Virus record (IMG/VR): IMGVR_UViG_2541047680_000004
Strand: one strand, 5' to 3'
DNA: 64,000 bases
Origin: a virus
Taxonomy: Duplodnaviria; Heunggongvirae; Uroviricota; Caudoviricetes
Position 1 is the stretch's first letter. Every line of letters starts with the position of its first letter. The notes under the pieces are model-generated. The model did no database searches and was not told the origin of the DNA. It worked only from the letters and a program-made list of their open reading frames with translations. Positions 3,003 to 49,271 of the stretch are shown here, in pieces. The translations under genes were made by a program, and so were the position numbers.

Positions 3003-3780
3003 AATTCAGCACTGCCAGTATTTATTACTCAACAGTGCCAATCGCGACGGTTTAGTTTCTGCCAGGAAACGCACCGCTACTTGCACTTTTCGTTAGTGCC
3101 AGACGCTTTCGACTTCGCTCAATAGTAGAAGGCAAAATCTTTAAGTAGATGATGTTTCTGAGGACAGCACCTACTTTGTAATTTATACAATGTGATGTAT
3201 GGAATCATTTGTTGTGAAAACAGGCACCAATGGCAACAGTGGTTAAACCTACACAACAATCCCGTCTTCACAACGTTGAGGCCACTACTCCGATTGAATG
3301 TTTGCCCAACATGTTACATATCAACGCTCGCCGGTATCTCTGTGAATAGAACCTTAGAATTGATAAAAATGTAATGGCCTCAACGTTGTGTGCTGGCTAA
3401 CCATACCAGCCGGGCTACGTCGCCGCTTTTTAACCCAGTATAAACGACATAATTGAACAAAATGACGTAACAGGATGGGCGGTCAGTGGCTAAGAATCCG
3501 GGAGTCATATGGAGTTGAAAATATACCAACCGCCCATTCTGTTACTTCATCGGAGGGAACATGAATGTTCCCTCCTGCGTTCTGCAATCACACTCGCTCA
3601 GTGTGTCCCATTTCGGTAACGAGGCTGGAAACTGACCTCGCTGGTGTTTGGCTTATTAGGCTACTGCCAGATAGACTTCTTCGTTTGCACTTGTATTTAA
3701 GTTCAAACAGTCGCGTCTCAACGAAAACAAAGTCATCTTATACACAAAAGATAAGTAAGTAAATACTTATCATTGTATTT

Positions 3781-4071
3781 TTATTCGGTTGTGACTTTTT
3801 TGATCAAGGCCACTCTACGACTAGGTGTTCTTGTGATGGTGGCAGTGAATCGTTTCGCCTGGATAGTAATGGTTTCGTTCTCCTTAAGTTGCCCGTAGCG
3901 AGTTTCCACCAGGGTGCCAAGACGCCACAGACCATCATCGATACGTTTATGACTAGCAAATTTAATCAGCAACAGTTTTACGACTAACTGACCTACGTAA
4001 AAGGCGAATGCGACTCCGGCCGCTAAGAAATAGGTGGCCAACCACCAGTCCCAAGAAGTTAAATTGCTCAT
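3781..4071 (-). CDS. hypothetical small membrane protein
   Basis: 96-aa ORF with N-terminal hydrophobic helix (WLATYFLAAGVAFAFYVGQLVV). Confidence 0.4.
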   Translation of the reverse strand: MSNLTSWDWWLATYFLAAGVAFAFYVGQLVVKLLLIKFASHKRIDDGLWRLGTLVETRYGQLKENETITIQAKRFTATITRTPSRRVALIKKVTTE

Positions 4072-4216
4072 TTTCTAACCTTTGTTTCATGAACTACCCG
4101 ATACACACGCTTTCCGATACACAGTGTTTTGGTTTTAAGTTCCTGCTTAATTAAATCACGACAGATGCCGAAGCCGATAAGGAAGCCACCCATAAAAGCT
4201 AATGAGATGTATGGAA

Positions 4217-4432
4217 TCATTTTAACACTCCTGATTCTACTAATTGCTGTAGCAATACTTTCCCTTTATCAGTTAACTGGTAGTTGGCCGAACACTTCGT
4301 TTCAGAAACGTTTGCAACCAACCCTAACCGCTCTAACTTAGCTCGCGTTTTAGGCTTCCAGTACTCAGGGAACTCCGGCCACTTACTGATTTCATGAAGC
4401 GTTTCCTTCTCCCGTTTACTTAATACGATCAT
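4217..4432 (-). CDS. hypothetical small protein
   Basis: 71-aa ORF in phage early-type region. Confidence 0.3.
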   Translation of the reverse strand: MIVLSKREKETLHEISKWPEFPEYWKPKTRAKLERLGLVANVSETKCSANYQLTDKGKVLLQQLVESGVLK

Positions 4433-4591
4433 CCTTAATCTCCTTCACGGTGTTGGTTATTTCTACAATGCGATAAATGCGACCTCGTCTTTCTATAACA
4501 CCGTTTTTAATGTAGTCATTAATGCAACTGGACATCACCACAATACCGATGAAAAAACCAACTGCTAAAAATGCAATCATCCAGCCGAGCA

Positions 4592-5914
4592 TCATTCTTT
4601 ATCTCCGATTCGATCTTCTGTATCGCGTAAGCAACGCGGCCATTTCAGTCGTGGGTGGCGTAAGCTGCCATCCGGCGTTTTCTCGTGACAATGAACCTCG
4701 ACAATACGACCACGGTACTTCTCTTTGTTGTTCCAGATCTCGTCCAGATATTTATGCTTAATGCCGCTCGCACGAACAATCACACCGTTTTCAAGGCGAA
4801 TAACAATTTTTCCAAGCGTGTTGGCAAAACCAGAGTCCGGGTCGCCCGGCTCAAAGTCGATAATTTCACCATCTTCTGAATCTTCGTCTTTTAACTTCCA
4901 CCAGCTGCGGGTACGTTTAAACTCGTAAACAGAGTTCGGATCTTTGCCCATCTCCCCTTCTTCGTTATCGTCCAGGCGTTTCATGAAGCGTTCGATGAAA
5001 TCTTCGTGGCTATGGATGATATAGAACGGATGCAGGTGAATGTCTTGTGCGTAGCCTTCACTGCGATCGTTTTTAAACAACGCCACCAGCATAGCCAGGC
5101 GCTCTTTCAGCTTCATACCTGTCTTTGCATACTCTTTGGATTTAGCCTGTGCCCGCCATTCCGGTAGGAAGAAGTCGAAAACATGATAAATAGCGCCAAT
5201 TGCCTGCACGTTCTTTTTGCGCAATGCAGATACGGACTGGTTAAATGAACCGGCTGTTCCTTCACCATCGAAGAAGATGTGTTTGTGGCCTGAAAGTTTG
5301 CCTAATTCGAGCATTGCTGGCTTTAGGTGATCGAGAGACGTGATTGGATTACCAGTACGAGAAAGGAAGTTAACCTCTTCCTCGTCAACAATAACCTCGC
5401 AAATTACTCGCAAACCATCGAGCTTAAGACTGCCAATCATCGGCCATTTTGCTTTAGGATTTGGCTTGAAGGGGTATTTGTCGCCTTTTTCTTTATACGG
5501 TGACGCCAGCTGCACCTCGAATTTCGGAATGGGATTTTCAAAAACCTTGTTGCATAGGCTAATCCCAACACCTGCTTTCGGGTCTTTTAAGAGGAAACGA
5601 CGGAACACGTCCTGCCCATCGGCGCACATTGACGCCACGATAGACTCAACAGCTGCTATTGCTGCGTTCCCCGTTAGCTCGCGAGAGGCCAGCTTATTCA
5701 GTATATCAATGGCTTTTTCGTCACTTGGGACGGACTCACTAAGCGGCTCTGCCACTTTGTATTTCTTTACCCCAAAACGGATGAAAGGGTTGAGCATCAA
5801 TGAAACCATGCTTTGTTCAAAGTCATCCATGTTGGCCAATGCCTCTTTTTTTGCATTGGTTCCCATAGCTTTCATTTCGTCCAGCTTATGCTTAAGTGCG
5901 ATCAACTTTTTCAT
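4592..5914 (-). CDS. ATP-dependent DNA ligase
   Basis: Adenylation motif I KxDG(x)R present as SLKLDGLRV; 440 aa, size and layout typical of phage ATP-dependent ligases. Confidence 0.8.
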   Translation of the reverse strand: MKKLIALKHKLDEMKAMGTNAKKEALANMDDFEQSMVSLMLNPFIRFGVKKYKVAEPLSESVPSDEKAIDILNKLASRELTGNAAIAAVESIVASMCADGQDVFRRFLLKDPKAGVGISLCNKVFENPIPKFEVQLASPYKEKGDKYPFKPNPKAKWPMIGSLKLDGLRVICEVIVDEEEVNFLSRTGNPITSLDHLKPAMLELGKLSGHKHIFFDGEGTAGSFNQSVSALRKKNVQAIGAIYHVFDFFLPEWRAQAKSKEYAKTGMKLKERLAMLVALFKNDRSEGYAQDIHLHPFYIIHSHEDFIERFMKRLDDNEEGEMGKDPNSVYEFKRTRSWWKLKDEDSEDGEIIDFEPGDPDSGFANTLGKIVIRLENGVIVRASGIKHKYLDEIWNNKEKYRGRIVEVHCHEKTPDGSLRHPRLKWPRCLRDTEDRIGDKE

Positions 5915-6381
5915 TGTTGTTTTGCCTCCATATGTTGATCGATTTGCTCATGTGTTTCTTTTGTTGTTTCTTCAAGCAACGCCGCATACACGTCAGTGAT
6001 CGCTGTTTGTGATGTGGCGCTCTTCTTAACCATGCTATTAATCGTTACACTGTCACGTTTTCGTTTTATAGTTCTGGCTTGTTTATTCCGTTCTTCAACC
6101 TCCTTAATGAGTGCGGTCATATCTTCAAAATACAGAGATTCTCCTTTACGAATCTCTTCAACCATCATTTTTAACGCCTTGCATTTGCCTGCTTTAATAG
6201 CGGTTGCGCACGACTGGAAAGAAGTTCGAGGAAGACGGTTTTCTTTGAAGGCAAGAATGGTGTGCTGGCAAACGGAATAGCTGCAATATGCCGACTCACC
6301 GTTTATCTTTACTTCCTCACAACGAAGTGAATAACTGTTATTTCCTGAAATAGAAGGGATTTTTGACAAATCAGCTTTCAC
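5911..6381 (-). CDS. hypothetical protein (Cys-rich N-terminus)
   Basis: 156-aa ORF overlapping ligase start (operon arrangement). Confidence 0.45.
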   Translation of the reverse strand: MKADLSKIPSISGNNSYSLRCEEVKINGESAYCSYSVCQHTILAFKENRLPRTSFQSCATAIKAGKCKALKMMVEEIRKGESLYFEDMTALIKEVEERNKQARTIKRKRDSVTINSMVKKSATSQTAITDVYAALLEETTKETHEQIDQHMEAKQQ

Positions 6382-6448
6382 AATTACCGCCAGAAATAAT
6401 CTTGTGCTTACCTATCATTATTTGCGTAAAAAACGACACACAGAGAGC

Positions 6449-7225
6449 TTACCAACTTCCCCAGCTAATCATCTTGCGCTGATCGCTTTCTAAGCGATAA
6501 GGGGCAAGAAGCTCTGTGACATGATTGGTGGCGTATGATTTAGCCTCTTGCTTAATCATCGGTAATTCGTTAGCAATCCTGACCATCTTCCCAGCAAATT
6601 CCGCCATTACGCCATCACAAGCCTTCCCCGCATCAACAACGATATGCACAAGATCCAACTGGCTTTTGCACATATCCCAAAGAGACGCGTATTCACTCTC
6701 TCTGATTACATTTACGGCACTATTAGCCCCTTTATTAATCAAAACTTCCAACAGATTTTTCGGGGTAACGAAATCTGCTTTCAGAGATAATGTCTTTTCA
6801 CCACTTATCGAACGCAAGTACTCTTCGTAGTTATTCTTCATCAAACCGCTGCTGCGCATTGCTAGAACTGCTTCTTGAATGGCCGCTTCAATAGTTTCGT
6901 CGTTTGAAAGACAAAAAACGGTATTTGTGTAGATCACTCTGCCATCAAGCCATGCTCCAACCTGCACTTTAAGACTGAGCGGGTTTTCTTTGCTAATAAA
7001 AACAACTAATGCAGAACGCCGTGCACAAGAAGGTTCGCCCCATACGTGTAACTCAACTTTCAGATAAGGCAACCCTGGTAGCGGGATCTCGTCCATACGA
7101 GCAGCGATATGATTCATTGCTGTATTGACGACCTTTCCAATGATGTCTAGTCGACTGCCCTCGCTGATTTCTAAACCTGTTTTATCAATGATGTCACAGG
7201 CCAATTTCTGAATTTCGTCTTTCAT
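6449..7225 (-). CDS. hypothetical protein
   Basis: 258-aa ORF with upstream conserved intergenic motif. Confidence 0.45.
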   Translation of the reverse strand: MKDEIQKLACDIIDKTGLEISEGSRLDIIGKVVNTAMNHIAARMDEIPLPGLPYLKVELHVWGEPSCARRSALVVFISKENPLSLKVQVGAWLDGRVIYTNTVFCLSNDETIEAAIQEAVLAMRSSGLMKNNYEEYLRSISGEKTLSLKADFVTPKNLLEVLINKGANSAVNVIRESEYASLWDMCKSQLDLVHIVVDAGKACDGVMAEFAGKMVRIANELPMIKQEAKSYATNHVTELLAPYRLESDQRKMISWGSW

Positions 7226-7350
7226 ACCAACTCCTAGCTAACAGATGAAAGTATTCTTACAAAAAACTAAGTATGTATCTACTTATCATTTTAGGCGCAA
7301 TAGTTCCCTATACGAAGATGCCGGGCTTATAGTCTGCCCGGCATTCACCA

Positions 7351-10387: not shown

Positions 10388-10396
10388 GCTTATTTT

Positions 10397-11780: not shown

Positions 11781-12530
11781 TTAATTAGATAGGGGATCAA
11801 TAAACCGCCGTGCTTCTTCCAGTTCTTCTGGAAAGTGGGCGGAAATAAGGCGCTCTGGAACGATTTCCATTAGCCAGATAGCGGAGAAAATTGCGCGTAT
11901 GCGCTTGCTGCGAGGGATGGTGCGCAAACGCTCCAGAATCCACTCAAAATAGCTTTCCTGAATCGGGTTGAACTGCATGTCTCCCATATGCTTAAAGCTA
12001 ACAAGAGAGTCATCCAGACGGGTTGTTGCGCGTCTGGCTAATTTCTCTTCGAATATCTCAACCAGCTCTGGCTGCCACAAATGCTGTGGGCGCGGCAGCT
12101 TGTCCCACAGCCGTCGTGCAGCTGCGGAAAGAACGGTGGAGATAAAGTAGTCGTATGAGCAGCAATAGCGGTCAGCAAACTGGCGTGCTTTCCATAGAGA
12201 CGTTTTATTGGCAGTCGACAACTCCTGATAAGGCAGGCGTTTTAACCCGGTGGTGAACGGAGCTGTTTCAAAGTGTTCGCGACCGTGCGTCAGCATGATA
12301 TTTGAGTACTGACGTTTGTATGCCTCCGTAAACAGACAGGTGGCCATAAGAGGATGCATGTCTCGGTAATCAAACCACTTCGTCTCGAAGAGTTCAGCCT
12401 CGTCTTTACAGCGCGACAAACCAATGTTTTCAGCGACCCACTTGTCCATAACAGCGGTATTCCACTCTGTCATGAAGTCGTACTGGTCGTTGTCGATGGT
12501 ATCGAAAAAGATTTGGCTCATGTGGCTCAC
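11781..12530 (-). CDS. hypothetical protein (replication module)
   Basis: 249-aa ORF directly upstream of the helicase in the same operon. Confidence 0.45.
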   Translation of the reverse strand: MSHMSQIFFDTIDNDQYDFMTEWNTAVMDKWVAENIGLSRCKDEAELFETKWFDYRDMHPLMATCLFTEAYKRQYSNIMLTHGREHFETAPFTTGLKRLPYQELSTANKTSLWKARQFADRYCCSYDYFISTVLSAAARRLWDKLPRPQHLWQPELVEIFEEKLARRATTRLDDSLVSFKHMGDMQFNPIQESYFEWILERLRTIPRSKRIRAIFSAIWLMEIVPERLISAHFPEELEEARRFIDPLSN

Positions 12531-12637
12531 CTGGTAGGTAGTTACTTACTTATCACGATGGACGGATGATAGCGACTGGTGTCAGTTTTTGGAAGTGAAA
12601 ACGGAAGGGAGTTGTTCTGGTGGTGTCTTTTAAAAGA

Positions 12638-12683
12638 CCTGCTTCCGTATATATTTAATAAGTTACTTATTATTTATATACAG
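12638..12683. repeat. copy 1 of a 43-bp AT-rich repeat (second copy 45937..45984)
   Basis: cctgcttccgtatatatttaataagttacttattatttatata(c)ag, near-identical in both copies, each about 110 bp upstream of an operon start. Confidence 0.7.
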
Positions 12684-15005: not shown

Positions 15006-15105
15006 TCTTATATGTGATATAGCCTAAATGCCTACGGCTGTGGTGTAAAGGTTTAATGATAGGTACATAGGTGGGCTTAATAACAAAAAACCCGCCGTAG
15101 CGGGT

Positions 15106-16902: not shown

Positions 16903-17622
16903 TTAGACCATCCCTTTCTGGTGTTTTCTTACCTGCGACCAGGCAATGAATCCTGCCACAACAATAGTGGCAATACCGAAGATGATGCGTACTGTATCCC
17001 CGCTAGAGATATGACCTTGTGCTTTATCCATAGCAGCGGAAACCTGTGGCATAACATCGGCCAGCTGTGCCAGACCAATACCTGCTGTAACAGTTGCGCC
17101 TGCGGTTTCTTTAGTTACAGGAACAGCCTTCACGGTTTTCACCGGCTTAACGACGCCAGCTCGACGCAGACCTTCCTCAATAACTTCTGCCGCATACCAG
17201 GTGTTCAGCGTTTTTAGCGGACCTCGCCCATTCTCATGGCGAATGATTGCCTCAACCAAAGGTCGAAGGATGTCGTAATCATGCAGATCGATGATCATGT
17301 CTGCGGTTACACCAACGGCTTTAGACACCTCATTAATGTAGGCGTCAGTGTTGTTTTCATTCGGCGGTGCCCAACGTTCAATAACTTCACGAATGGTATC
17401 GATACTTGAGCCGTCTTTTGCGCGACGTTTGTCGTGGTAGGTAATTAGAGTCACCGCCAGCGCACGAATCCCCCAAACAGGGTCTTTAAACGTGCAAAAG
17501 CGCGGTTCGTCTGGATTCGCAACCAGACCTTGCCACGGTGATCCTTTATCAAGATTACCGGGGTTATTATTACGAATGCCTCTCGGAGTCTTCATCCTTG
17601 ATCTCCTGTTATTGCAGTCCAT
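16903..17622 (-). CDS. putative endolysin with C-terminal hydrophobic segment
   Basis: Position between holin-like and spanin genes; GIRNNNPGN motif region; C-terminal IIFGIATIVVAGFIAW helix. Confidence 0.45.
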   Translation of the reverse strand: MDCNNRRSRMKTPRGIRNNNPGNLDKGSPWQGLVANPDEPRFCTFKDPVWGIRALAVTLITYHDKRRAKDGSSIDTIREVIERWAPPNENNTDAYINEVSKAVGVTADMIIDLHDYDILRPLVEAIIRHENGRGPLKTLNTWYAAEVIEEGLRRAGVVKPVKTVKAVPVTKETAGATVTAGIGLAQLADVMPQVSAAMDKAQGHISSGDTVRIIFGIATIVVAGFIAWSQVRKHQKGMV

Positions 17623-17944: not shown

Positions 17945-18013
17945 GAAAAGTCAAATCGGGATGGCGGATTTATATCACATTTCACCCTTTTGTTGTAGGT
18001 GTGTGCTTACCTA

Positions 18014-23476: not shown

Positions 23477-23567
23477 GTTGAATATGCTCCTTGATTTGGT
23501 GGGCTATCCTTGCCCCCATTAAGTGTGTACCTACTTATTTTTACCGATATAAATATTTTTTTCTACA

Positions 23568-30409: not shown

Positions 30410-30458
30410 CCTGTCAGCGCCACAATGATAGTAAATTAGTACTTACTTATCCAGATAC

Positions 30459-36120: not shown

Positions 36121-36903
36121 TTAATCTGCGGGGTTAATCGTTACTGACTTAGTTGCCTTCTTACCACCGCTATTGCTGGTGAAGGAGATATTTGTAGAAC
36201 CCTGCGCCACACCACGTACCAGACCCGTTTGATCTACCGTGGCCTTTTCCTGGTCTTCGGATTCCCAAACACCGGTTTTGTCTGCGGCATCAGCTGGAGT
36301 GATTTCGGCTGTCAGTTGCACAGTTTCTCCAGCTTTTACGGTTGGAGATTCCGGTGAGATCGACACAGTTTTTACCGGTTTAGGACCGCTCATTTTGCCC
36401 AGAACGCCTTCATCATCCGGGTATGCGCTGAACTGAACAGAGAACACACGAACATCATCAGACTGGTAGGTCATAGTGAAGTTGCCCGCGGTTGCCGCTT
36501 TCGGGATGGTCAACACATAGTCGGTGGTGTCCTGCGGAGTCAGAACCAGCTCCTTCGCCACATCAATCAGGTTAACGCCCTGTGCAGATGTGATCGTGAC
36601 AGAGTTGTCATCTTCGCTCAGAGTAGAACCAGGCATCAGGTCAACCATGTTTTGGAGTACAGACTCAGCCAGAGGCGCGGTGATGGTAATGTTGCGCCCC
36701 TGAACTAATTCGGAAATTACGGTCTGCCCCAACTGATCGACGGTGACTTTCAGCGTTTCAGTGGCTACTTCAACCTGAACACCACCTTTGGTGTAACCCA
36801 AATCCACACCACCAAACGACACCTTACAGGCACCAAGTTTGATGTTTTTTACATGGGTATTAGACATTGATGGAAAACTCCTTTTTCCGTTAATTCTACG
36901 CAT
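36121..36903 (-). CDS. major tail protein (V-like) with C-terminal Ig-like (Big_2) domain
   Basis: 260 aa; C-terminal segment VSISPESPTVKAGETVQLTAEITPADAADKTGVWESEDQEKATVDQTGLVRGVAQGS typical of Big_2. Confidence 0.75.
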   Translation of the reverse strand: MRRINGKRSFPSMSNTHVKNIKLGACKVSFGGVDLGYTKGGVQVEVATETLKVTVDQLGQTVISELVQGRNITITAPLAESVLQNMVDLMPGSTLSEDDNSVTITSAQGVNLIDVAKELVLTPQDTTDYVLTIPKAATAGNFTMTYQSDDVRVFSVQFSAYPDDEGVLGKMSGPKPVKTVSISPESPTVKAGETVQLTAEITPADAADKTGVWESEDQEKATVDQTGLVRGVAQGSTNISFTSNSGGKKATKSVTINPAD

Positions 36904-36941
36904 TCATTGCGCTAATAGTAAGTATATACTTACTAATTGAG

Positions 36942-39526: not shown

Positions 39527-40447
39527 TTATTCCTGTGCAGCAGTGACTTCTACGGTCGCTGTCGCTTTGTGGCTACCATCTTGGGTAGTAACCTCGATTG
39601 TGGCAGTACCAGCCGCAACGCCAGTTACAACACCGGTTTCGCTATCCACCGTTGCAAACTCGGTATTTTTGGATTCCCAAGTAACGGTTTTATTTGTTGC
39701 TCCTGCCGGCTCGACATTTGCGGACAGCTGAACAGTTTTGTTTGCCTCAACGGTTGTGCTATTTGGGTCGATTTCGACGCCGGTAACAGCCACAACAGGC
39801 GCAGTTACTTCCACCGTTGCAGTTGCCTTTTTGCTGCCATCTTGGGAAACGATCTCAATCGTCGCAGTGCCAACTTCTACACCAGTAACGTTCCCGCTCT
39901 GGTCTACCGTTGCCTTATCTTCATTTTTGGAAGACCAGGTAACAGCCTTATTCGTCGCATTTGACGGCTGAACATTCGCTTTCAGACTGACTGATTTCCC
40001 TTTCTCAACAGACGTTGATTCTGGCGTTACCGTTACGGATTGAACGGCTACCGGATTTACGGTGACTTCCACTGAAGCGGAAAGCTGGGTTTCCTGATCA
40101 GTTGCAGTAATTTTTACTTTGCCTGGTGCTACGCCAGTTACTAATCCAGTGCCGTTAACGGTTGCAATTTGGTCATTTGCTGACTTCCAGGTGAATGAAC
40201 TGGCACTCTTACCCATACTAATACCTGCACTAAGTTGAACAGTTTTCCCAACCAAAACTGACGGTGAAGCCGGGGTTATGTTTACGGATTGGGAGAGGGG
40301 AACCGCCTGCAAACAAGCAGATAGCTGACTTTGTTGCCGCTCGGTTAAAGGTTCATCGGAGATAGAATTGGTAAATCCGGCACGGCACATATGCCCCGTA
40401 AAATCCGAAAATGCCTCTTCCGTAATCTTCATCTTTTGTTCTGGCAT
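39527..40447 (-). CDS. Ig-like (three Big_2 domains) protein, putative head decoration
   Basis: Three repeats of ..TV.P.S.TV..GKTVQLSA.V.P..ATNK.VTW.S.N...ATVD..G.VTGV..G.ATI.. directly downstream of major capsid gene. Confidence 0.6.
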   Translation of the reverse strand: MPEQKMKITEEAFSDFTGHMCRAGFTNSISDEPLTERQQSQLSACLQAVPLSQSVNITPASPSVLVGKTVQLSAGISMGKSASSFTWKSANDQIATVNGTGLVTGVAPGKVKITATDQETQLSASVEVTVNPVAVQSVTVTPESTSVEKGKSVSLKANVQPSNATNKAVTWSSKNEDKATVDQSGNVTGVEVGTATIEIVSQDGSKKATATVEVTAPVVAVTGVEIDPNSTTVEANKTVQLSANVEPAGATNKTVTWESKNTEFATVDSETGVVTGVAAGTATIEVTTQDGSHKATATVEVTAAQE

Positions 40448-40520
40448 TTCTCGCTCCTACAAAAAGGGTGGGCGTATAGCCCACCCTTTAACATAGATAA
40501 CTACTTATCTACTACACTGA

Positions 40521-41396
40521 TTAAATTTTTACATTGGTCAGTGCAGCGATAGCCTTATCATGCTTATTCGCCAGAGAGCAGTACCACTTCACACGGGTAC
40601 GTACTGCGTCTTTGTTCTGTACAGTACCAATGTTTTCAACAACGATACCTGCGTTATCGCCGCCATACAGACCAGTAACGCCGTTCTCTTCTGACAGATG
40701 CAGGCAGTAGATGCTTGCTTTGCCAGCATCGGTCGGGATGAAGTCGTTGATGATGAACGGAACGCCGTTATGACACAGCATCGGACGACCAAAGTTCTCC
40801 ATCATGATTTCAGACGGACCTACGTTTACTGTACGCAGCAGCGCACGATAAGCACGCAGGTGCTCTGAACGCATCATGATGCAGTCAGCACCAAGATCTT
40901 TCACCGCATCGACCAGTTCGTCGAACATAGAGAAAGTCATAGATGCACCGGCGATATCGATCTTCTGATCTGCGTGCATCAGGCGTGGAATGCCGTCAAA
41001 CGCCTTGTTGTTGGAGCTGGAGTCACCCAAAATCAGGTTGCGACGGAACGCACGAGCCAGACCTTTAACTTTCTGACGAACCTGAATAGCCAACTGGTTG
41101 TTGGTGTCGGCCATAGTGGTCGCCAGGAATTTATCAACGTCTACGTCACCAGCCAGAATACGCAGTTTCGCAACGCATTCTTCGAAGGTTGCTGCACCTT
41201 CAGGGATGGTGTCGTTAACGTCGATGAAGGTAGCTTCACTCAGCGTTTTTTCACGGTTGTACAGATATGCCTTTGAATTAATTTTCATAAAAGGCAGGAT
41301 GGCAAACAGGTCATCGCGATCGATGATAGTTTCGATCACACCCTGTTCAAGTTCGTTGTTAGACAGCTTTTCAGCTTCTTCACGCAGTAATGGCAT
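40521..41396 (-). CDS. major capsid protein
   Basis: 291-aa ORF between scaffold and decoration genes; strong terminator hairpin after stop. Confidence 0.7.
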   Translation of the reverse strand: MPLLREEAEKLSNNELEQGVIETIIDRDDLFAILPFMKINSKAYLYNREKTLSEATFIDVNDTIPEGAATFEECVAKLRILAGDVDVDKFLATTMADTNNQLAIQVRQKVKGLARAFRRNLILGDSSSNNKAFDGIPRLMHADQKIDIAGASMTFSMFDELVDAVKDLGADCIMMRSEHLRAYRALLRTVNVGPSEIMMENFGRPMLCHNGVPFIINDFIPTDAGKASIYCLHLSEENGVTGLYGGDNAGIVVENIGTVQNKDAVRTRVKWYCSLANKHDKAIAALTNVKI

Positions 41397-41421: not shown

Positions 41422-42309
41422 TTACTTAAGTCCAATTTTCCCCAGACCGGAGGCCAACTTATCCATAGTCGACTTGTTCTTCGGTTGGGATATTGTGTAG
41501 GTCGATTTGGAATGTGAGCCTACACCCTGCTTGGCTTCGCTACGCATCAATGCGTCAGCTTCCGGATCTGCCCGCACAATGCGTTCAATCGCGGATTCAA
41601 ACGGCAACGGCTTACCTTCACCGTCAACCAGAACAGCTCGTTCTTTGTGACCTGCCGGTTTGTCATAACCCACTACGCTACCGTCTTCACCCACTTCAAA
41701 ATGAGAACCGTAGATCACGCGGGCTTTTGCCGGGGTCATCAGAACTTTGTCACGTAGGAAGAGAGAGTTACTGAAGGAAGCGCCCACGGTCATCTCGACT
41801 AATTGAGATTTCAGTGATGCGTTTTCACTTTCCAGTGCTGCATAACGTTCGTCACGCTGTGCCAGCTCTGCCTGGTGTGCTTCGATCATCTGTTTTTTAA
41901 CAGCATCGAACTCACCACGACGCTCCAGTTCAGCTTGCTCCGCCTCACGACGTGCGTTTTCTGCGGCCTGTTCAGCTTCTAAAAGCTGGCGAGCACGAGC
42001 CGGATCGATATCACCGTACTGAGCAAGCTGATCGGCCAATGTGCGCTCTTTCTCTTTGCGCTTCATGTTCTCCTTCAGCAGTTCAGCACCAGCTTTCTTG
42101 GTTTTACGAAGTTCGGCCAGTAACTCTTCCTGAGTCATGCCAGCGTATTCGTCATCGCCCTTCGGCTGCTCTTTTTGTTCACCCTGTTTGTCAGGATCTT
42201 GTGTACTCTGCTCATTATCAGCAGCTACACCGCCAGCGCCTCCACGCTCATGCGCTTCAGCGACATCCATCAGACCACGACGGGCCAAAAGCATTTGCCA
42301 CAGATTCAT
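41422..42309 (-). CDS. scaffolding protein
   Basis: 295 aa, highly charged helical/coiled-coil (EAEQAAENARREAEQAELERR), between portal and capsid. Confidence 0.6.
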   Translation of the reverse strand: MNLWQMLLARRGLMDVAEAHERGGAGGVAADNEQSTQDPDKQGEQKEQPKGDDEYAGMTQEELLAELRKTKKAGAELLKENMKRKEKERTLADQLAQYGDIDPARARQLLEAEQAAENARREAEQAELERRGEFDAVKKQMIEAHQAELAQRDERYAALESENASLKSQLVEMTVGASFSNSLFLRDKVLMTPAKARVIYGSHFEVGEDGSVVGYDKPAGHKERAVLVDGEGKPLPFESAIERIVRADPEADALMRSEAKQGVGSHSKSTYTISQPKNKSTMDKLASGLGKIGLK

Positions 42310-42330
42310 AAAAATTCCTTTTGTTACTTA

Positions 42331-43905
42331 TCACTCGTTCTCTTGAGTAGATGAGTCCCCATTCCCTCGGGGTTGATCTTGCCCTCTTTCTTGGGCTGCA
42401 CCACGATCATAAGTAAGTGCTGACTTATTTTCAAGGGTATTTAGATCATTTTTTGGAGGAAAATTCAAGAGATCTTTATCAAATTCCTTTTTCATCGCCT
42501 CAGTAATGTTCGGGAAAATCTTCTCAATAAGCATTTCCATCTGGTGACGACGTACAGAGTCCGGTGCCTGAAGTAATGACAGTTTCTCGGCAACAGAAAA
42601 TTCATCAGTAAGGCCACGAATATCGAAACTTTCTGGATACGCAATTAAAGAGTGGTCTTCGTCCAGATCTACCCCCATCCATTTCGCAACCAGTAGCATG
42701 ATTTGGCGTTCAGCCCTTTCCAGACGCTCTGCTTTTGTGACAAGCAAGCTATTTACACGCTGGAAGTCATACATTTTTGCGGCACCAGATGAGTTATCGA
42801 TTCCCTGTGCGTTGTCCTGCTTCGTTCGCTCACCAGCTACACCAACTGAATGGTAGATTTCGTTAATCACCGTCTTAATCGTAGTGATGATCATCTGAGC
42901 TTGTTTCGGGTCTGGTGACAGATAAAACGGCTGGTTTCCACCTTCAGAATCGTAGGTGAAGACTCGCTTTGTGCCCATTTCAAGCACTTTAGTGTGGTTT
43001 TCATCACCAGGTAAAAGCGACTGTACTGGTATAGCCAACTGGCTAAATGTCTGATCCTGAATAATGGCATCAAGGTTTGACAGATAGTTTGCAACCGCAC
43101 GATCAAGATAAGCGATATCATCGATCAACGATGGGCTGAAATACGGTGATTCACTTTCTCCAATACAATCAACAGGAAACACAGGAACTACGCTGAGATT
43201 ATGCTCACCGCTATCCTCTAAAATAACTTTTGCCTGACGGCGACCTGCTCCACCAGCGCCCTTCTTCACTTCCTCACGGAACAGATACCACTCGTTTTGT
43301 GTCCACAGACGATAACGTTGGTATTCCTGACCTGTAGAAGTAAAAGGATCTGCGTCATCGCGAGCGACTTCCACAATTAACGCCCATAACATATTCCCGT
43401 CGTCGTCCCATGCCACATCCAGCATTTGCTGAGGTGAAATCCAGTAGGCGTAGGCGCGAGCATCTTTCTTTTTCTCGTCAGCTACTGACTCAACATCACC
43501 ACTCATCGTGCTATCGACAACAACCCATATGCGACCGTAAATAGACGACTGCAAATCAATAGCGGCCATAAATGAGTCAATAGAGGCATTCTGGCGAGTC
43601 GCACGTTTCCAGAAATTGCGGATCTGCTCTGGTGCCTCTTCGATATTTCTATGAATGTCTTCTTTAAAGAGATATTTGTTGATGAGGTTTACCACCTCAC
43701 GAGTGTGGTTGAAGCGATAAGCACGTTCAACTCGCTCCTTAAACTCCTGATCTCCCTCTTTAAAGTAACGAAAGATATTGTCTGTAAACCAACCACGCCC
43801 GCCAGCGTAAGTGCTGGCGAGGAAGTCCCAATGTTCTTTTTTCTTTTCGTATTCCGGGTGGCGTCGCGCCACCAGATCCTTAATTTGTTTGTCGTTCAAT
43901 TCCAT
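42331..43905 (-). CDS. portal protein
   Basis: 524 aa directly downstream of terminase large subunit. Confidence 0.65.
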   Translation of the reverse strand: MELNDKQIKDLVARRHPEYEKKKEHWDFLASTYAGGRGWFTDNIFRYFKEGDQEFKERVERAYRFNHTREVVNLINKYLFKEDIHRNIEEAPEQIRNFWKRATRQNASIDSFMAAIDLQSSIYGRIWVVVDSTMSGDVESVADEKKKDARAYAYWISPQQMLDVAWDDDGNMLWALIVEVARDDADPFTSTGQEYQRYRLWTQNEWYLFREEVKKGAGGAGRRQAKVILEDSGEHNLSVVPVFPVDCIGESESPYFSPSLIDDIAYLDRAVANYLSNLDAIIQDQTFSQLAIPVQSLLPGDENHTKVLEMGTKRVFTYDSEGGNQPFYLSPDPKQAQMIITTIKTVINEIYHSVGVAGERTKQDNAQGIDNSSGAAKMYDFQRVNSLLVTKAERLERAERQIMLLVAKWMGVDLDEDHSLIAYPESFDIRGLTDEFSVAEKLSLLQAPDSVRRHQMEMLIEKIFPNITEAMKKEFDKDLLNFPPKNDLNTLENKSALTYDRGAAQERGQDQPRGNGDSSTQENE

Positions 43906-43931
43906 TTGAATAACCTTAGATAATTACTTAC

Positions 43932-45188
43932 CTATCGAGAACCACCAAGAATAACACGGTTTTTGACTGGATACCTACGATGTACTGGATAGCCCAATGC
44001 GTCTGCACTATGCTCAATGCCACCTGTCTTATCCATATCTCGTGTTCCAGGCTTGTAGATGACTTTTTCCAGTGAATCAATCAAATGCTTGCACTTCGGA
44101 TCGATATACAGCCGGATATCTCCAGATGCGGTCATCAGCATTCGGTTAACAGCATTAACACGATCCGCAATTGGCGGGTGCTTTTTCGAATAATCGACAC
44201 GTAAGAATCCCTTCTCTTTGAATATGTCGACGTCAGACTCCCCGCGAGCATGTTGGCGATAAGCACCTGCCGGATCTGGAAATATCGTTATCTGTGATTT
44301 CCAGCGCCAGAAGCGTCTCTCAAGCTCATCACAAACCTCTGCCGTGTTAGAGGAAAAGAGCACCAATTCATCAATTGCCCATAGCTCACCATTTGGCTGA
44401 GGTTGCAAAATTACGGAAGACATCGGGTCAATGTTGAAGTCCTGCCCTACCCATATAGGTAACCGAGGGTTGAACTGAAGCGGTTTTACATGCACGTTAC
44501 GATCGAACGGGTAGTAAACGCGCCCGGACATGTTCTCAAAGCTGGCCAGGTACTCCTGAGCGAACGATTTGGGGTCCATATCGTTCTTAGCAGCTTCAAT
44601 TTCCGCCGTAGGTACAAACGGAGAATCGGCAGTTACAAACTGCCAGCTCTTCCACTGTCCCTTTCTTTGCAGCTCTACGTTCTGGCCTATAGTCCACAGT
44701 TTGTGAAATTCCGAGAAGCCTTTTGGCGTACCAATGATCAGTGCACCGCCGCGTGTCGATGAAAGAGTAGGTCGTAACACCTTGTACCAAGTGTCAGCCT
44801 TCATATCCTGAAATTCATCAAGCACTACAAAATGCAACGCTACGCCGCGCAGAGTGTCAGGCTTATCAGCACCTTTGAGGGCGATCTCCGAACCGTTCTT
44901 CAACACGATTGTCATCGTGGTGTCGTTCTTTTTCCTAACCCACTTACGAGGCAGAACTTCCTGTAGATCGTCCCACAAAATCTGGCGAGCCATCTGGTAA
45001 GTAGGAGCGACATACCAGACCCTTTGCTTTTTTTCCTTTGCCGCCGCACGAATAATAGTGGAGATCGACAACCGGGATTTTCCCCAGCGTCGACCAGCAC
45101 AAACAACTTTAAATCGATGCGGAGACTGGAAGACTTTCATCTGTCCAGAATGCAGTTGCACAAGACTGAGCGAGGACGGGATTGCCAT
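43932..45188 (-). CDS. terminase large subunit
   Basis: N-terminal Walker A (CAGRRWGKSR), Walker B-like VVLDEF, C-terminal nuclease-type acidic residues. Confidence 0.8.
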   Translation of the reverse strand: MAIPSSLSLVQLHSGQMKVFQSPHRFKVVCAGRRWGKSRLSISTIIRAAAKEKKQRVWYVAPTYQMARQILWDDLQEVLPRKWVRKKNDTTMTIVLKNGSEIALKGADKPDTLRGVALHFVVLDEFQDMKADTWYKVLRPTLSSTRGGALIIGTPKGFSEFHKLWTIGQNVELQRKGQWKSWQFVTADSPFVPTAEIEAAKNDMDPKSFAQEYLASFENMSGRVYYPFDRNVHVKPLQFNPRLPIWVGQDFNIDPMSSVILQPQPNGELWAIDELVLFSSNTAEVCDELERRFWRWKSQITIFPDPAGAYRQHARGESDVDIFKEKGFLRVDYSKKHPPIADRVNAVNRMLMTASGDIRLYIDPKCKHLIDSLEKVIYKPGTRDMDKTGGIEHSADALGYPVHRRYPVKNRVILGGSR

Positions 45189-45820
45189 TATTCGTCCTCC
45201 CCTTCACTTCCATCATCTGTCGCATCAAATTCGCTTAGAGCTTCTTCTTCCAACGTCTCAAGCAATTCGTCATCGATGATTTCAGGCTCGTCGTCTTCCT
45301 GACGTAATTTCGCCACCTGGGAAGGCGTAAGCTCACCAAATACCAGATTCGGAATTTCTTCCTCGTCATTTTCCGCATGATCCATGCCCAATGCTTTGGA
45401 CGAAACTTCAAAGCATTTTGCAAGGGTATTACTGGCTCTCTGTAAGCTCTTGAGAGAATCCTCAATCGCCCCTAAAGGCTTACCCTCACGTTTGGCCGTA
45501 GTGACTTCGACCATCACCATCTGCCCCAACGCATACGCCCAGCCGTCATAACGTGTACGACGTTCTTCTATCTTTTCCGCACGGGCTTTAGCGCGAAGCT
45601 CTGCGTCAGATTTAAGAGACTCACGAACCATCTTCCCAACAGAGTCCGCGCCTTTCTCTAATCCTCGCTTTTTGAAATGTCTGGAGAGTGTTTCACGACG
45701 AATGCCGTACTCTTCCTCCAGCTTTGAGAGTGTATATTCGCCTGACGTCCATTTGGCTTCAGCTTCGGCCCACTCCGCTGGTGTCAGGCGAGTTTTTACC
45801 TCGTCTTTTTCGACCGTCAT
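45188..45820 (-). CDS. terminase small subunit
   Basis: 210 aa with N-terminal HTH-like segment (TLSKLEEEYGIRRETLSRHF) and acidic C-terminus; stop overlaps TerL start. Confidence 0.6.
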   Translation of the reverse strand: MTVEKDEVKTRLTPAEWAEAEAKWTSGEYTLSKLEEEYGIRRETLSRHFKKRGLEKGADSVGKMVRESLKSDAELRAKARAEKIEERRTRYDGWAYALGQMVMVEVTTAKREGKPLGAIEDSLKSLQRASNTLAKCFEVSSKALGMDHAENDEEEIPNLVFGELTPSQVAKLRQEDDEPEIIDDELLETLEEEALSEFDATDDGSEGEDE

Positions 45821-45936: not shown

Positions 45937-45984
45937 CCTGCTTCCGTATATATTTAATAAGTTACTTATTATTTATATATACAG
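45937..45984. repeat. copy 2 of the 43-bp AT-rich repeat
   Basis: Near-identical to 12638..12683. Confidence 0.7.
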
Positions 45985-46015
45985 ATGCAGGTCTTTAAAT
46001 AAGCTCCCAGACCGA

Positions 46016-46282: not shown

Positions 46283-46291
46283 GGCAAATCC

Positions 46292-47182
46292 TTATGCCGG
46301 TAAAGCAATTTCTAACGGTTTATCCAAAGGTTGTTTGTCGAATGCCAGCAGTGGCAGCGTGTCAGGCAGTCGACGGCCAAAGTCAGGGTTTCGGTACACA
46401 CCATACAACGGAGACGTAAAGCTCAGGTTGTGAATGTCCTTGAGCAGCTTCACAATGCTGGCCTCGTCCACCAGACTGTCGGCAATGTCCTGAATCGTCG
46501 TGCCACGATTCCGCCCAGCTTTTGCCAGGGAACTGTTCTTGTGGTAGTCCGCCACCAGATCACGCAGTGCACGGCGACGACGAGACTCGCTCATTGCGAA
46601 CAATTCTTTGACGATCGCCTCGTTATCACCCGGGTCGGAACGGAAATGGCGCTGGAATACACGCAGTGCACTTTCATAGCTCTTCGGTCGCTCAGGGCGG
46701 ATGAACTTAAACCCTGCTTTCATGGCGAAGGGATTGTATTTGCTCATCGAGGACTGGATCTCAATGATTGGCCGGTCATGCATCCTGCTAACCAGGTTAA
46801 TCATTCGATAAGAGACGCCTACGCCACGATACTGAGTATCCACAACTGAGCGACTGATCACCGCAAAGTTGTTATTCACGTACCGACCCCAGTACTGGTT
46901 AGCCACGGTGGTATTAGTGGTTGGTTTCAACTTAGGAAACATGCGGTGGCGAGGTGCCAGCAGTAGTTTCGGGTAAGCCATAACCACGACGCCCACCAGA
47001 CGGTCATCAAGTTCGCAGCGATAGTAAGTTGGCGCGAAAGGTTTGCCGTCTGTTTTGTAGTGAAGCGACTTAAGAGCGTGCCAGTCCTCTACAGTTCCCT
47101 TTGTGACAGTCATTCGCTCCAGAAAGTCCAGATGACGCGGAAACTCTTCAGGGCGGTAGCGTTTAATGATGATGTCCGTCAT
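46292..47182 (-). CDS. GNAT-fold acetyltransferase-like protein
   Basis: CoA-binding-type motif VVDTQYRGVGVSYRMINLV (R-G-x-G-x-S) in a 296-aa protein. Confidence 0.4.
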   Translation of the reverse strand: MTDIIIKRYRPEEFPRHLDFLERMTVTKGTVEDWHALKSLHYKTDGKPFAPTYYRCELDDRLVGVVVMAYPKLLLAPRHRMFPKLKPTTNTTVANQYWGRYVNNNFAVISRSVVDTQYRGVGVSYRMINLVSRMHDRPIIEIQSSMSKYNPFAMKAGFKFIRPERPKSYESALRVFQRHFRSDPGDNEAIVKELFAMSESRRRRALRDLVADYHKNSSLAKAGRNRGTTIQDIADSLVDEASIVKLLKDIHNLSFTSPLYGVYRNPDFGRRLPDTLPLLAFDKQPLDKPLEIALPA

Positions 47183-47844
47183 AAATGAACCTCATCATGA
47201 CTACCATTGTGATATTCCACCTTCACGCGTTCTTTGTAGTGCTTGGTGATCTGCATATCCGGGCGCAGCGCGTTCTTCAGGTCTTCGTGAGTCGTCGCCA
47301 CCATTACCGTCGCACCAACCTTTCGAGCGGCACGCTGGAGGTTAGATGCCACAACCTGAGCGGTTACACGGTCTAGAACAGCACCGAACTCGTCAGCAGC
47401 CCACACTTTAGCGCCTGACTCAATCAGTTTGGCAATCTTGAGACGATATTTCTGACCGTCTGACATTTCAGAAGGCTTGCGAACAAACAGATATGCATCG
47501 TTCAGACCAGCCATAGATAACAACCCAAGCGCATCGCTGGTCGTTTTGCCCAACTGATCGATGACGTTAACCTCATTATCGAAGGTAAAATCATCGATGG
47601 AGGCTACAGACAGCCCTTCATCCTTCATCTGTCGTTGCAACTCGCGCAGCACAACGGATTTGCCGGAACCGGATTGGCCGGTGATGTACACCACATCGCC
47701 CTGCTTCACTTCCAGCTCCAGATTGTCGTAAAGCGTCCACTCTTTTTCGTCCAGGCCAAGCCCGAACGACTCAGCGATTTCCAACGTGCGCGTGGTTTTA
47801 TTTACGCGTGTCTGAAACGATACGTTGATGATGTATTTGCTCAT
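47179..47844 (-). CDS. stand-alone ABC-type ATPase (nucleotide-binding domain only)
   Basis: Walker A GQSGSGKS, signature-like MSDGQKYR, Walker B VWAADEF, H-loop TTHED. Confidence 0.65.
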   Translation of the reverse strand: MSKYIINVSFQTRVNKTTRTLEIAESFGLGLDEKEWTLYDNLELEVKQGDVVYITGQSGSGKSVVLRELQRQMKDEGLSVASIDDFTFDNEVNVIDQLGKTTSDALGLLSMAGLNDAYLFVRKPSEMSDGQKYRLKIAKLIESGAKVWAADEFGAVLDRVTAQVVASNLQRAARKVGATVMVATTHEDLKNALRPDMQITKHYKERVKVEYHNGSHDEVHL

Positions 47845-48542
47845 ACAGCCATCTCCCCGGAAGAGATCTTCTCCGCATATGCCACAAATGCGTCTACCCC
47901 GCTTTCTCCCGTCATTTCTTCCATGTGGGCAAGCAAATCACCAACAACAATGGCAGAGCCAGCAGGAAGCGTTTTAAAGCCCAATACGTCGACAACACGT
48001 ACTTCTTCCGCTGCAACTTCACGACTGATCTCGGTGTGTTCATCCTTCTGTCGTTTAGTTTCTTCGCCAAGATCGATAACTAGCGAGTCGGTGTCCATTT
48101 CTTCTGTCATGCTGCCAACGAGAACATTCAACTCACGCTCTTCAAAGCCGAAAACCTCGATATCGTCCAGAACAAGCGACTCAAGCTCTTTCTGTAGCTT
48201 AATTGCATCGTAATCAATGCTGGCAAGTCGGTTATCTTCAAGGCGCTTCGCACGAACCTCGTCATCACTGAGATCATCGCGAACAATAACCGGTACGCGC
48301 TCAAGTCCAGCAAAAATTGCAGCCTCACGGCGGCCGTGGCCAGTAATAATTACGTCGTTCTTATCGACCGTAATTGGCTGGTCAAATCCGCGCTTTTTAA
48401 TGGCTGCGGCTAGATCTCGGATCTGCTGTTCATCATGCTTTTTGGCATTCATCTCATAGGGAATAAGATCTGCCGGGTCGCGATATACGATTTCAAACTT
48501 TTTGGTCATTACATACGCTCCTTGTAGTAGTCGACCAGCCAC
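47841..48542 (-). CDS. ParB N-terminal domain (ParB/Srx-like) protein
   Basis: ITGHGRREAA motif resembling the ParB GxxRxxA box. Confidence 0.6.
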   Translation of the reverse strand: MAGRLLQGAYVMTKKFEIVYRDPADLIPYEMNAKKHDEQQIRDLAAAIKKRGFDQPITVDKNDVIITGHGRREAAIFAGLERVPVIVRDDLSDDEVRAKRLEDNRLASIDYDAIKLQKELESLVLDDIEVFGFEERELNVLVGSMTEEMDTDSLVIDLGEETKRQKDEHTEISREVAAEEVRVVDVLGFKTLPAGSAIVVGDLLAHMEEMTGESGVDAFVAYAEKISSGEMAV

Positions 48543-49207
48543 ACCAGAGCCTCACCAGCGTTCTCCATTTCATTACCGGTGTTAATAGCCTGCTCTTTGA
48601 TGATGTTTTTTATGGTTTCTGCAACACGATCTGACGCATCGAAAGTTACTTTGAAGCGCATGGTCTGATGTTCCGCCCCCACACGTTCGGTTTTCTCTCG
48701 TTTGTCGGTATCGACAGGCTCATCACTACCACGAGACAACGCCTCCAGTGCTTCAAGGTCGATTGCCGCCTCTTTTGCTAAAACCATCGAGATTTCGTCG
48801 TCATACGGGGCGATTTCAGACAGTTGATAGTCAAGTTCTGACTGAATTTCTTCAATGAAGCGTTGCAATGCGATTTGGTCGTCTTCACCGTATCGCTCGT
48901 TGTCCACCAGTGACATCTGTTTAGCTACGACATCGCTAATTTTGCCCACAGAAAGCACTGGAACCGTTGAAATTCCTTGCTCAATAGCGGCACGCCAGCG
49001 ATGTTCGCCGCCGAGGATTTCAAAAAATCCATCTTCAAGTTCACGAGCCAAAATTGGCTTAAAAAAGCCCAATTTTTCGATAGAACCTTTCAGTTTTTCA
49101 AAATTCTGCGCACCAACCGAATTGGTGTTCCAGGTATTCGGGCGAAGGTTGGCAACATCAACCTGCAAAATCGTGATTTTTACATCCATTTTATTGCTAC
49201 AATCCAC
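48509..49207 (-). CDS. ParB N-terminal domain (ParB/Srx-like) protein
   Basis: ILGGEHRWRAA motif resembling the ParB GxxRxxA box. Confidence 0.6.
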   Translation of the reverse strand: MDCSNKMDVKITILQVDVANLRPNTWNTNSVGAQNFEKLKGSIEKLGFFKPILARELEDGFFEILGGEHRWRAAIEQGISTVPVLSVGKISDVVAKQMSLVDNERYGEDDQIALQRFIEEIQSELDYQLSEIAPYDDEISMVLAKEAAIDLEALEALSRGSDEPVDTDKREKTERVGAEHQTMRFKVTFDASDRVAETIKNIIKEQAINTGNEMENAGEALVWLVDYYKERM

Positions 49208-49271
49208 TAAGTAATCACTTACTTATTATAATAGCCAAATAACATACAAAAGGCACTAAGGAAAGAGGTTT

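Follow-up and report, generated by a model that had tools for sequence, protein, structure and literature searches.

The 64,000-nt stretch of viral DNA analysed here (IMG/VR record IMGVR_UViG_2541047680_000004; hereafter the window) carries a dispersed 22-bp dyad in front of many of its genes, and this dyad is a real element that is symmetric, enriched, conserved and restricted to one lineage. The behaviour of its two arms fits a DNA site for a dimeric protein rather than an RNA hairpin or processing signal. From sequence comparison we consider it reasonably probable that the dyad is the operator of an element-encoded dimeric helix-turn-helix (HTH) regulator, most likely the putative Xre repressor of the CYRAN_45 family, named after its member in the prophage Cyrano. 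The window shares ~81% identity with Salmonella phage SSU5 and ~79% with Klebsiella phage-plasmids such as pJN2-26, and it therefore represents a 64-kb piece of an Escherichia coli SSU5-like phage-plasmid whose full length is roughly 108 kb. The minus strand carries most of the window genes, and a single opposite-strand block begins at 49,272 with a helicase gene.

A Symmetric Dyad Dispersed through Intergenic DNA

The original prediction described a 13-nt word, (T)ACTTAC(C/T)TATCAT, upstream of many minus-strand genes. We found the word or a close variant at every position for which it had been reported, and its enrichment held against shuffled controls: ACTTACYTATC with at most one mismatch occurs 9 times in the window compared with 1.5 times expected, and a count of 9 was reached in 0 of 100 shuffles. 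An unbiased ranking of 7-mers in non-coding versus coding DNA, which made no use of the predicted motif, placed TAAGTAA first and ATAAGTA second. When the sites are aligned on the transcribed strand, the repeated 11- to 13-mer word (ACTTACYTATCAT) proves to be one arm of a 22-bp dyad with the half-sites GATArGTAAGT and ACTTAyTATC, which is frequently longer (ATGATA...TATCAT). The inverted-repeat form is clearest in the sites of relatives, and many window sites have one degenerate arm. Full-dyad scoring of the window gave 13 distinct sites matching at least 16 of the 22 positions, compared with 0.35 in 100 shuffles (maximum 3), and 12 of the 13 are non-coding even though only 12.6% of the window is (binomial p ~2e-10). 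With a position weight matrix (PWM), we obtained 23 matches in the window compared with 0.32 in shuffles, and 51 compared with 0.16 for SSU5.

The expectation that the sites stand before start codons was borne out, the dyad centre lying ~10-110 nt upstream of the next one, and the data support an element-specific regulatory signal in promoter-proximal intergenic DNA. The idea of an oriented, strand-biased word survives only in part. The window does show a weak bias (the better arm is on the plus strand at 9 sites versus 4; p = 0.03), which explains why the motif was read as an oriented 13-mer, but the relatives show none: the stronger arm is 5' or 3' in ratios of 10:9 in SSU5, 11:9 in pJN2-26 and 10:9 in CMS-2020a, i.e., there is no orientation bias genome-wide. 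Word-like sequences do occur at 42,324 and 15,054, as reported, but these are half-sites only. Likewise, both copies of a 43-bp repeat do contain the motif, but in a compressed version (AATAAGTAACTTATT) whose membership in the regulon is uncertain. Three sites were absent from the earlier list, at 762-783, 42408-42429 and 56259-56280.

We then scored the full genomes of SSU5, pJN2-26 and CMS-2020a, which contain 25, 26 and 24 distinct sites of at least 16/22, respectively; frames of at least 15/22 number 43-50 per genome compared with 3-5 in shuffles. In the annotation of the SSU5 record, 23 of its 25 sites fall between genes. The sites are promoter-proximal, evenly spread rather than clustered, and mark module boundaries. 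They precede portal, capsid-associated, tail, fibre and lysis genes, the DnaB/primase unit, SSB, recombination genes, nrdA, thyA and a methylase gene, and also the tRNA region and a divergent ParB-like/helicase region. As structural, replication, nucleotide-metabolism and tRNA units are all preceded by the dyad, it is not a late-gene signal. At orthologous window sites the 22-mer is 89% identical in SSU5 and 82% identical in pJN2-26, compared with 78-82% in the adjacent 30-nt flanks; the gaps around these sites have acquired indels and the motif is kept.

The exact 20-mer ATARGTAAGTACTTACYTAT occurs at 39 IMG/VR loci, all of which match SSU5-like genomes; the match spans at least 57% of the length of 38 loci and only 17% of that of the remaining one (L058). 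With a 30-nt consensus we located 1270 near-consensus places, spread over 241 of 5426 complete E. coli genomes and lying without exception on plasmids of ~95-155 kb (nearly all 100-125 kb), and no near-consensus copy was found on the chromosomes of these 5426 genomes. This confinement to SSU5-like elements and plasmids makes a host regulon unlikely. In a divergent SSU5-like clade (loci L132-L138 and L419), in which the ParB-like protein is ~72% identical and the repressor 51% identical, the dyad at orthologous places keeps its outer arms and is changed inside, reading GATArGTAG-N4-CTAyyTATC (GATAGGTAG-N4-CTACCTATC). A scan with this variant dyad returned 7 loci.

Half-Site Conservation Fits a Dimeric DNA-Binding Protein

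Arm covariation is absent. Among 71 distinct site sequences we counted 7.39 Watson-Crick pairs per site, compared with 7.46 ± 0.11 when the arms were shuffled among sites. Positions 5 and 18 combine randomly (A-T 20, A-C 14, G-C 14, G-T 13), and on the sense strand 74 G·U pairs stand against 63 A·C pairs, i.e., there is no G·U excess. No U-tract was found after the dyad, and Rfam returned only tRNAs in the window, with no match at the sites. Each arm is thus held to the consensus independently of the other, which points to half-sites for a dimeric DNA-binding protein and not to a hairpin. Independently conserved half-sites within a dyad of ~14-22 bp are what characterizes operators of the Cro/CI (Xre) type, and the compensatory or wobble changes by which a structured RNA keeps its pairing were not seen. 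The sequence comparison therefore fits a DNA site of a dimeric protein, and the lack of both covariation and a sense-strand preference for G·U over A·C speaks against the RNA-processing signal that had been offered as one possibility.

Some Dyads Overlap Sigma70-like Promoter Matches at Variable Offsets

The observation that the motif does not match a sigma70 -35/-10 pair is confirmed by our analysis: it is symmetric, lacks a -35, and does not have the arrangement of TTGACA and TATAAT 16-18 bp apart in a single orientation. Full sigma70-like matches are markedly depleted in part of the window, with 16 compared with 38.1 ± 6.6 expected at 1-20 kb and 9 compared with 23.3 ± 3.7 at 20-40 kb; they are not depleted at 40-60 kb (29 compared with 29.4 expected). 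Four of 14 window sites coincide with a sigma70-like match of at least 9/12, the dyad always lying between or over the hexamers. In SSU5, pJN2-26 and CMS-2020a together, promoters scoring at least 9.5 overlap sites in the sense direction 14 times and in the antisense direction once. About 5 sites per genome overlap sigma70-like promoters of this score, and the remainder have weak matches only.

We could distinguish four geometries. The right arm may form the -10, the left arm then adjoining the -35; an extended -10 may begin 6-8 nt past the dyad; the -10 may lie just before the dyad, which then covers +1; or the -10 may lie ~20 nt further downstream. All four are conserved among orthologues, and the start of the best -10 relative to the dyad varies (-2, 19, 22, 27-32 and 36-43). 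A few sites, for example in the 26-bp terminase-portal gap, are too tight for a promoter plus leader. Such variable placement over core promoter elements suggests repressor operators, since for an activator site or promoter element a single constant offset would be anticipated, and on the sequence evidence the geometry of the dyad suits repression better than activation.

A CYRAN_45-Family Repressor as the Candidate Binder

CYRAN_45 is the putative master repressor of Cyrano and is expressed 10-fold above the prophage background in an LF82 lysogen, and Cyrano is induced 39-fold by ciprofloxacin (PMC9928086). The protein is annotated as an HTH putative repressor and is an Xre-type protein of 128 residues (126-128 in the family), with weak Pfam matches to HTH_19 and HTH_3 and a match to phrog_8, 'transcriptional regulator', at 1.3e-11. 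A PDB search with the repressor alignment gave an insignificant Xre-type match only (2kpj, E = 0.21). The gene adjoins the integrase gene and is divergent from a cobT-like lytic unit. Homologues are present in CMS-2020a (98% identity; 16152-16535) and in pJN2-26 (56% identity; 90088-90468), and absent from the window and from SSU5. Position 1 of the window corresponds to CMS-2020a 17,374. Given this collinearity, we infer that the element from which the window derives carries the repressor gene ~0.8-1.2 kb past the window's left edge, as its 98%-identical relative does.

Upstream of the repressor gene lies a block consisting of TTTACA, a 17-nt spacer and TAATAT, followed immediately by C(G/A)GTAAGyACTTACCA, so that the motif core is over the expected transcription start of the gene. 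This promoter-operator block is invariant in every repressor identity class from 56 to 100%, and the surrounding sequence diverges. In the relatives, though not inside the window, a lysogen-expressed repressor gene thus has an operator-like copy at its own promoter, as a cognate repressor should. The segment YKN(A/P)N..LSLIK.G.IPLP, the putative recognition helix, is nearly unchanged across the same 56-100% classes. In the divergent clade, where the repressor is 51% identical, the helix is changed (NNLSNIKTGR) and the dispersed dyad is changed as well. The family comprises 67 clusters among 5.8 billion proteins, and its full-length members are nearly all on contigs of ~100-116 kb from Salmonella, Cronobacter, Enterobacter, Klebsiella, Citrobacter and E. 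coli. Together these observations point to an autoregulated candidate repressor and its putative regulon.

Several observations weigh against this assignment. The repressor gene lies outside the window, and SSU5, which has no such gene, still carries ~25 sites. The autoregulatory copy matches the dyad at only 16-17 of 22 positions, and the repressor-adjacent copy of the divergent clade is upstream of the -35 and not over +1; the changes in helix and operator in that clade could also both reflect overall divergence. Approximately 20 of 25 sites per genome have weak sigma70-like elements only, and activator-dependent promoters would look alike. Several sites lie 15-30 nt from a start codon inside an apparent single operon, where a promoter-occluding role is not obvious. 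Finally, other conserved DNA-binding candidates adjoin a site, namely two ParB_N proteins and a 92-residue protein. With regard to SSU5, its record annotation contains no integrase and it has no Xre repressor, unlike its plasmid-borne relatives, which fits a derivative that lost its immunity module.

The annotated SSU5 regulators that are conserved in all three genomes are an FljA-like protein, the two ParB_N proteins, a terminase-small-subunit-like protein and the 92-residue protein. SSU5_054, SSU5_055, SSU5_093 (Ant) and SSU5_116 are not conserved in CMS-2020a or pJN2-26 and therefore cannot be the shared binder. We also discarded the FljA-like protein as the binder of the dyad: the leader of fliC shares only GATAAG with the dyad, and shares CAAGTTGT with a second repeated motif of the window (motif 2, see below). 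The 92-residue protein (50834..51112) was set aside as well, as it belongs to a shallow family (18 proteins) with no meaningful PDB sequence match and a low-confidence AlphaFold model (pLDDT 54.8); it has a ribbon-helix-helix look by eye only, and no Pfam match.

Other Readings of the Dyad

An early protein bound at the dyad could bring host RNA polymerase to promoters without a -35, making the dyad an activator site or part of an activator-dependent middle or late promoter. This comes close to the original suggestion of a promoter read by a modified RNA polymerase or an activator, and we regard it as unlikely; it keeps some weight because most sites have no strong sigma70 elements. Besides the missing -35, it can draw on the depletion of sigma70-like matches in the lytic region, on the sites before nearly every lytic unit, and on the 5/6 match of the outer arm TATCAT to a -10, which would place the dyad centre near -20. 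However, the site is a symmetric one without orientation bias, TATCAT is found equally on the antisense side, the distance from the dyad to the best -10 varies, and the dyads are not confined to late units. Promoters that already match 10/12 have the dyad over their spacer and -10, or over +1, and at some sites there is no space for a transcript leader. The identical core also lies over +1 of the promoter of the lysogen-expressed Xre repressor in all relatives. A sigma factor gene, as sought by the original prediction, is not annotated in SSU5, in pJN2-26 or in those annotated portions of Cyrano and PhiR41_1 that we consulted, and neither is an RNA polymerase or Lpa-like gene, although not all open reading frames (ORFs) were scanned. 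It is improbable, in our estimate, that the two ParB_N proteins bind the dyads, either for silencing as at the KorB operator OB or for plasmid organization. Their tandem genes (48509..49207 and 47841..48542) begin at a divergent region that contains a dyad, they are 87-91% conserved in SSU5 and pJN2-26, and SSU5 retains both the sites and the ParB_N genes without an Xre gene, which is why this possibility is kept. Against it, no HTH or other DNA-binding domain was detected in them besides ParB_N, the sites are promoter-proximal and dispersed instead of clustered, a separate ParA-type partition module is present elsewhere in the genome, and the invariant dyad at the Xre promoter is more simply explained by autoregulation.

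Action at the RNA level, with the dyad as an 11-bp hairpin that serves RNase III/E processing or stability, or as a translational operator (e.g., of the FljA-like protein encoded at 51530..52132), appears very improbable. Palindromes can fold, the sites lie 10-110 nt ahead of start codons, and the window does encode an FljA-family protein, but the lack of covariation described above is accompanied by degenerate arms that in many window sites could not fold. Distances to start codons are also broad (12-141 nt), one site precedes tRNA genes, and the fliC leader is more like motif 2 than the dyad. Binding by a host factor, or non-functional repeats that act as recombination linkers between modules, would agree with the position of the sites at module boundaries and with their AT-rich sequence; we find this scarcely credible, since there is no near-consensus chromosomal copy in E. 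coli, the exact motif is confined to SSU5-like elements in IMG/VR, and orthologous positions keep their sites through 20% divergence and indels. Taken together, an operator of the CYRAN_45-family repressor remains the reading that we prefer.

Sites and Neighbouring Features in the Window

The motif copies of the window are listed in Table 1. As the Pfam glutaredoxin domain begins at residue 29 of its ORF, the true start of the glutaredoxin gene lies downstream of the 762..783 site. The 43-bp direct repeat is CCTGCTTCCGTATATATTTAATAAGTTACTTATTATTTATATA, and comparable AT-rich palindromes are present in SSU5 at 33472 and 78318.

Table 1. Dyads, partial copies and related features of the window, with promoter-like matches and orthologous sites where these were found
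Feature	Position	Strand	Genomic context	Promoter-like elements and orthologous sites
Dyad, 19/22 (GATAGGTATGTGCATACTTATC)	762..783		Upstream of glutaredoxin gene 474..~719 (minus), diverging from 894..2156 (plus)	
Four tRNA genes	2349-3002	minus		
Dyad, 20/22 (GATAAGTAAGTAAATACTTATC)	3750..3771		After 3781..4071 (minus); ~750 nt upstream of the minus-strand tRNA cluster 2349-3002	SSU5 41772, pJN2-26 83365
Site, 16/22, sense strand GATAGGTAAGCACAAGATTATT; strong 5' arm, degenerate 3' arm	6395..6416		Centre 24 nt upstream of 5911..6381 (minus), ahead of DNA ligase gene	
Dyad, 17/22	7266..7287		Upstream of 6449..7225 (minus)	Extended -10 (TGtAAGAAT) begins 7 nt past the dyad, which lies over -35 and spacer; identical geometry at SSU5 38177
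Dyad, 19/22	12533..12554		48-bp gap between 11781..12530 (minus, first gene of DnaB-helicase/primase unit) and plus-strand ORFs	SSU5 33599, pJN2-26 74982
43-bp repeat, copy 1 (exact); AT-rich palindrome with compressed motif	12638..12680		Near the replication-gene unit	
Half-site only (AATGATAGGTAC), PWM 15.5	15054..15075	plus, opposite orientation	Adjoins terminator	
Dyad, 17/22	17994..18015		Upstream of holin/endolysin cassette (17609..17944, 16903..17622, minus)	SSU5 27473, pJN2-26 69441
Dyad, 16/22	23518..23539		Between J-like tail tip gene 23568..28298 and tail fibre gene 19178..23476, both minus	
Dyad, 18/22	30430..30451		Upstream of tail tip L-like gene 29678..30409 (minus)	Overlaps sigma70-like TGGATA-17-TATCAT (30453-30425)
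Dyad, register ambiguous; core TAGTAAGTATATACTTACTA is a perfect palindrome	36913..36938		Upstream of immunoglobulin (Ig)-domain tail gene 36121..36903 (minus)	Overlaps TTGAAT-18-TATACT (36950-36921)
Site, 16/22	40492..40513		Between major capsid gene 40521..41396 and Ig-like gene 39527..40447; followed by terminator-like hairpin	
Half-site only (GTGATAAGTAAC), PWM 12.2	42318..42334	minus	18 nt before ATG of 41422..42309	
Dyad, 18/22	42408..42429		Within 3' end of portal gene; ~100 nt upstream of 41422..42309	Exactly in spacer and -10 of the region's best sigma70-like match, TTGAAA-17-TATGAT (10/12; 42434-42406); the arrangement recurs at SSU5 3543, pJN2-26 42092 and CMS-2020a 57997
Dyad, 18/22	43915..43936		26-bp gap between large terminase gene 43932..45188 and portal gene 42331..43905; a promoter cannot fit downstream	22/22 copy at the terminase-portal junction of pJN2-26 (40579)
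43-bp repeat, copy 2 (exact)	45937..45979		Upstream of small-terminase-like gene 45188..45820	
Dyad, 17/22	49206..49227		64-bp divergent region between ParB_N gene 48509..49207 (minus) and helicase operon 49272.. (plus)	
Motif core, 15/22, sense strand GTATTGTAAGTACATACTTACG	56259..56280		Directly past terminator; upstream of small gene 55821..~56200 (minus)	Overlaps TTGTAA-17-TAGAAT (56277-56249); SSU5 93164, pJN2-26 28030
Motif 2, starts of 15-mer form	11756, 14992, 45860, 45885, 54998, 55762, 56665, 57150, 59917, 59968			

Motif 2 reads AAGAAAACAAnTTGTTTA on the coding strand (15-mer form aAGAAAACAAnTTGTTTA) and often lies directly 5' of the Shine-Dalgarno sequence. We found 12 window matches of at least 12/14 compared with 0.8 in shuffles, and 15-21 per genome in the relatives. 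It is densest in the small-gene region at 54.9-60 kb, and copies also stand ahead of the dnaB, parA and terS-like genes; some are arranged, 51 bp apart, as inverted pairs that flank a promoter-like stretch. The 8-mer CAAGTTGT, common to motif 2, is present just upstream of the Shine-Dalgarno sequence in the fliC 5' leader of Salmonella and Citrobacter. The FljA-family protein of the window (51530-52132, plus strand) matches 'repressor of phase-1 flagellin' (Pfam PF03614, E = 2.5e-84; phrog_1444) and has a weak, sub-threshold Hfq-like match at residues 146-188; its gene is in the sole opposite-strand operon, together with the helicase, 92-residue protein and lipoprotein genes. FljA blocks translation of the fliC mRNA, according to a work cited in PMC2652032. 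The 8-mer in the fliC leader, the FljA-family gene and this known activity make a phage-wide FljA-type regulon a lead, and motif 2 may be the RNA or DNA operator of the phage FljA-like regulator.

The ParB_N gene pair (47841-49207, minus strand) is followed by an ABC-type ATPase-like gene and lies between the divergent dyad region and the terminase genes. Two further genes would be unusual accessory genes for a phage-plasmid, their labels being taken from the annotation of homologues in PhiR41_1: an ORF of 720 residues (60066-62228, minus strand), labelled methionyl-tRNA synthetase, and one of 129 residues (63395-63784, minus strand), labelled UmuD-like protein.

Comparison with Known Systems and Proposed Mechanism

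In the plasmid-prophage P1, a single repressor acts at many operators scattered by lytic promoters (PMC8198154). The proposed system resembles that of P1 C1 in its plasmid-prophage state, its genome of ~100 kb and its ~25 promoter-proximal sites. C1 is a large, unrelated protein whose operators are asymmetric 17-mers; the present site is a dyad of 22 bp, with an Xre-type HTH protein of 128 residues as the candidate binder, and the two systems have no sequence relationship. The stoperators bound by gp71 of L5 in cluster A mycobacteriophages are asymmetric 13-mers in one orientation relative to transcription; they number in the dozens, occupy short gaps between genes across the lytic operons, also away from promoters, and block elongation. 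Like these, several sites of the window (43915, 40492 and 23518) are located in short intra-operon gaps, and dyads also stand at junctions such as terminase-portal, capsid-decoration and tail genes. Unlike stoperators, the site is symmetric and free of genome-wide orientation bias, the window alone being biased (9:4), and the host phylum and repressor family differ.

The operator OB of RK2, a 13-bp palindrome in 12 dispersed copies, is bound by the ParB-family protein KorB. The dyad shares with the KorB/KorA system its dispersed palindrome, the variable distance to promoters and the ParB_N genes that adjoin one site; it differs in its better candidate binder, an Xre HTH protein that has a putative autoregulatory copy at its own gene. 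The Lpa-dependent late promoters of P1 have a -10 plus an inverted repeat near -22. Here too an element-specific repeat is found at promoters without a -35, and the dyad would be ~20 nt upstream of the putative start if TATCAT were the -10, but the site is symmetric, its offset from the -10 is variable and not fixed, and it is not restricted to late operons. No Lpa homologue is known here from the annotation consulted, the scan being not exhaustive.

We propose that in the plasmid-prophage state Xre repressor dimers would occupy ~25 dyads before essentially all lytic transcription units. Depending on the site, they would lie on the -35 and spacer, on the spacer and -10, or on +1, and binding at these places would keep RNA polymerase off. 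Negative autoregulation would come from the copy that immediately follows the -10 of the repressor promoter. Copies without a recognisable promoter (e.g., in the terminase-portal gap) may be weak or accessory sites; more speculatively, they may stop read-through in the manner of stoperators or contribute to cooperative binding. DNA damage would lift repression, perhaps via an antirepressor; this is a guess, made because the repressor has no peptidase domain. It is tempting to speculate further, although we rate this bolder scheme as rather unlikely, that one Xre repressor silences the whole 100-110-kb phage-plasmid, with the promoterless dyads of the long structural operons as transcription roadblocks and the FljA-like protein running the motif 2 regulon. 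If so, the promoterless dyads would be the equivalent of mycobacteriophage stoperators, in symmetric form and in Gram-negative bacteria.

A multi-operator prophage repressor regulon is a familiar design, which seems to be undescribed for the SSU5 group; in the open-access literature searched, we found no paper with the core sequence and none on an operator of these phages. Clinical Enterobacterales commonly contain SSU5-like phage-plasmids, whose lysis-lysogeny control is essentially uncharacterised. These elements can carry resistance genes (PMC9600943). The putative regulon would be a further instance of the design of many operators and one repressor that is seen in P1 and L5-like phages, and the operator, the candidate repressor and the map of ~25 units provide a handle for experiments (reporters, induction and curing), for the annotation of transcription units and for a typing signature of these elements.

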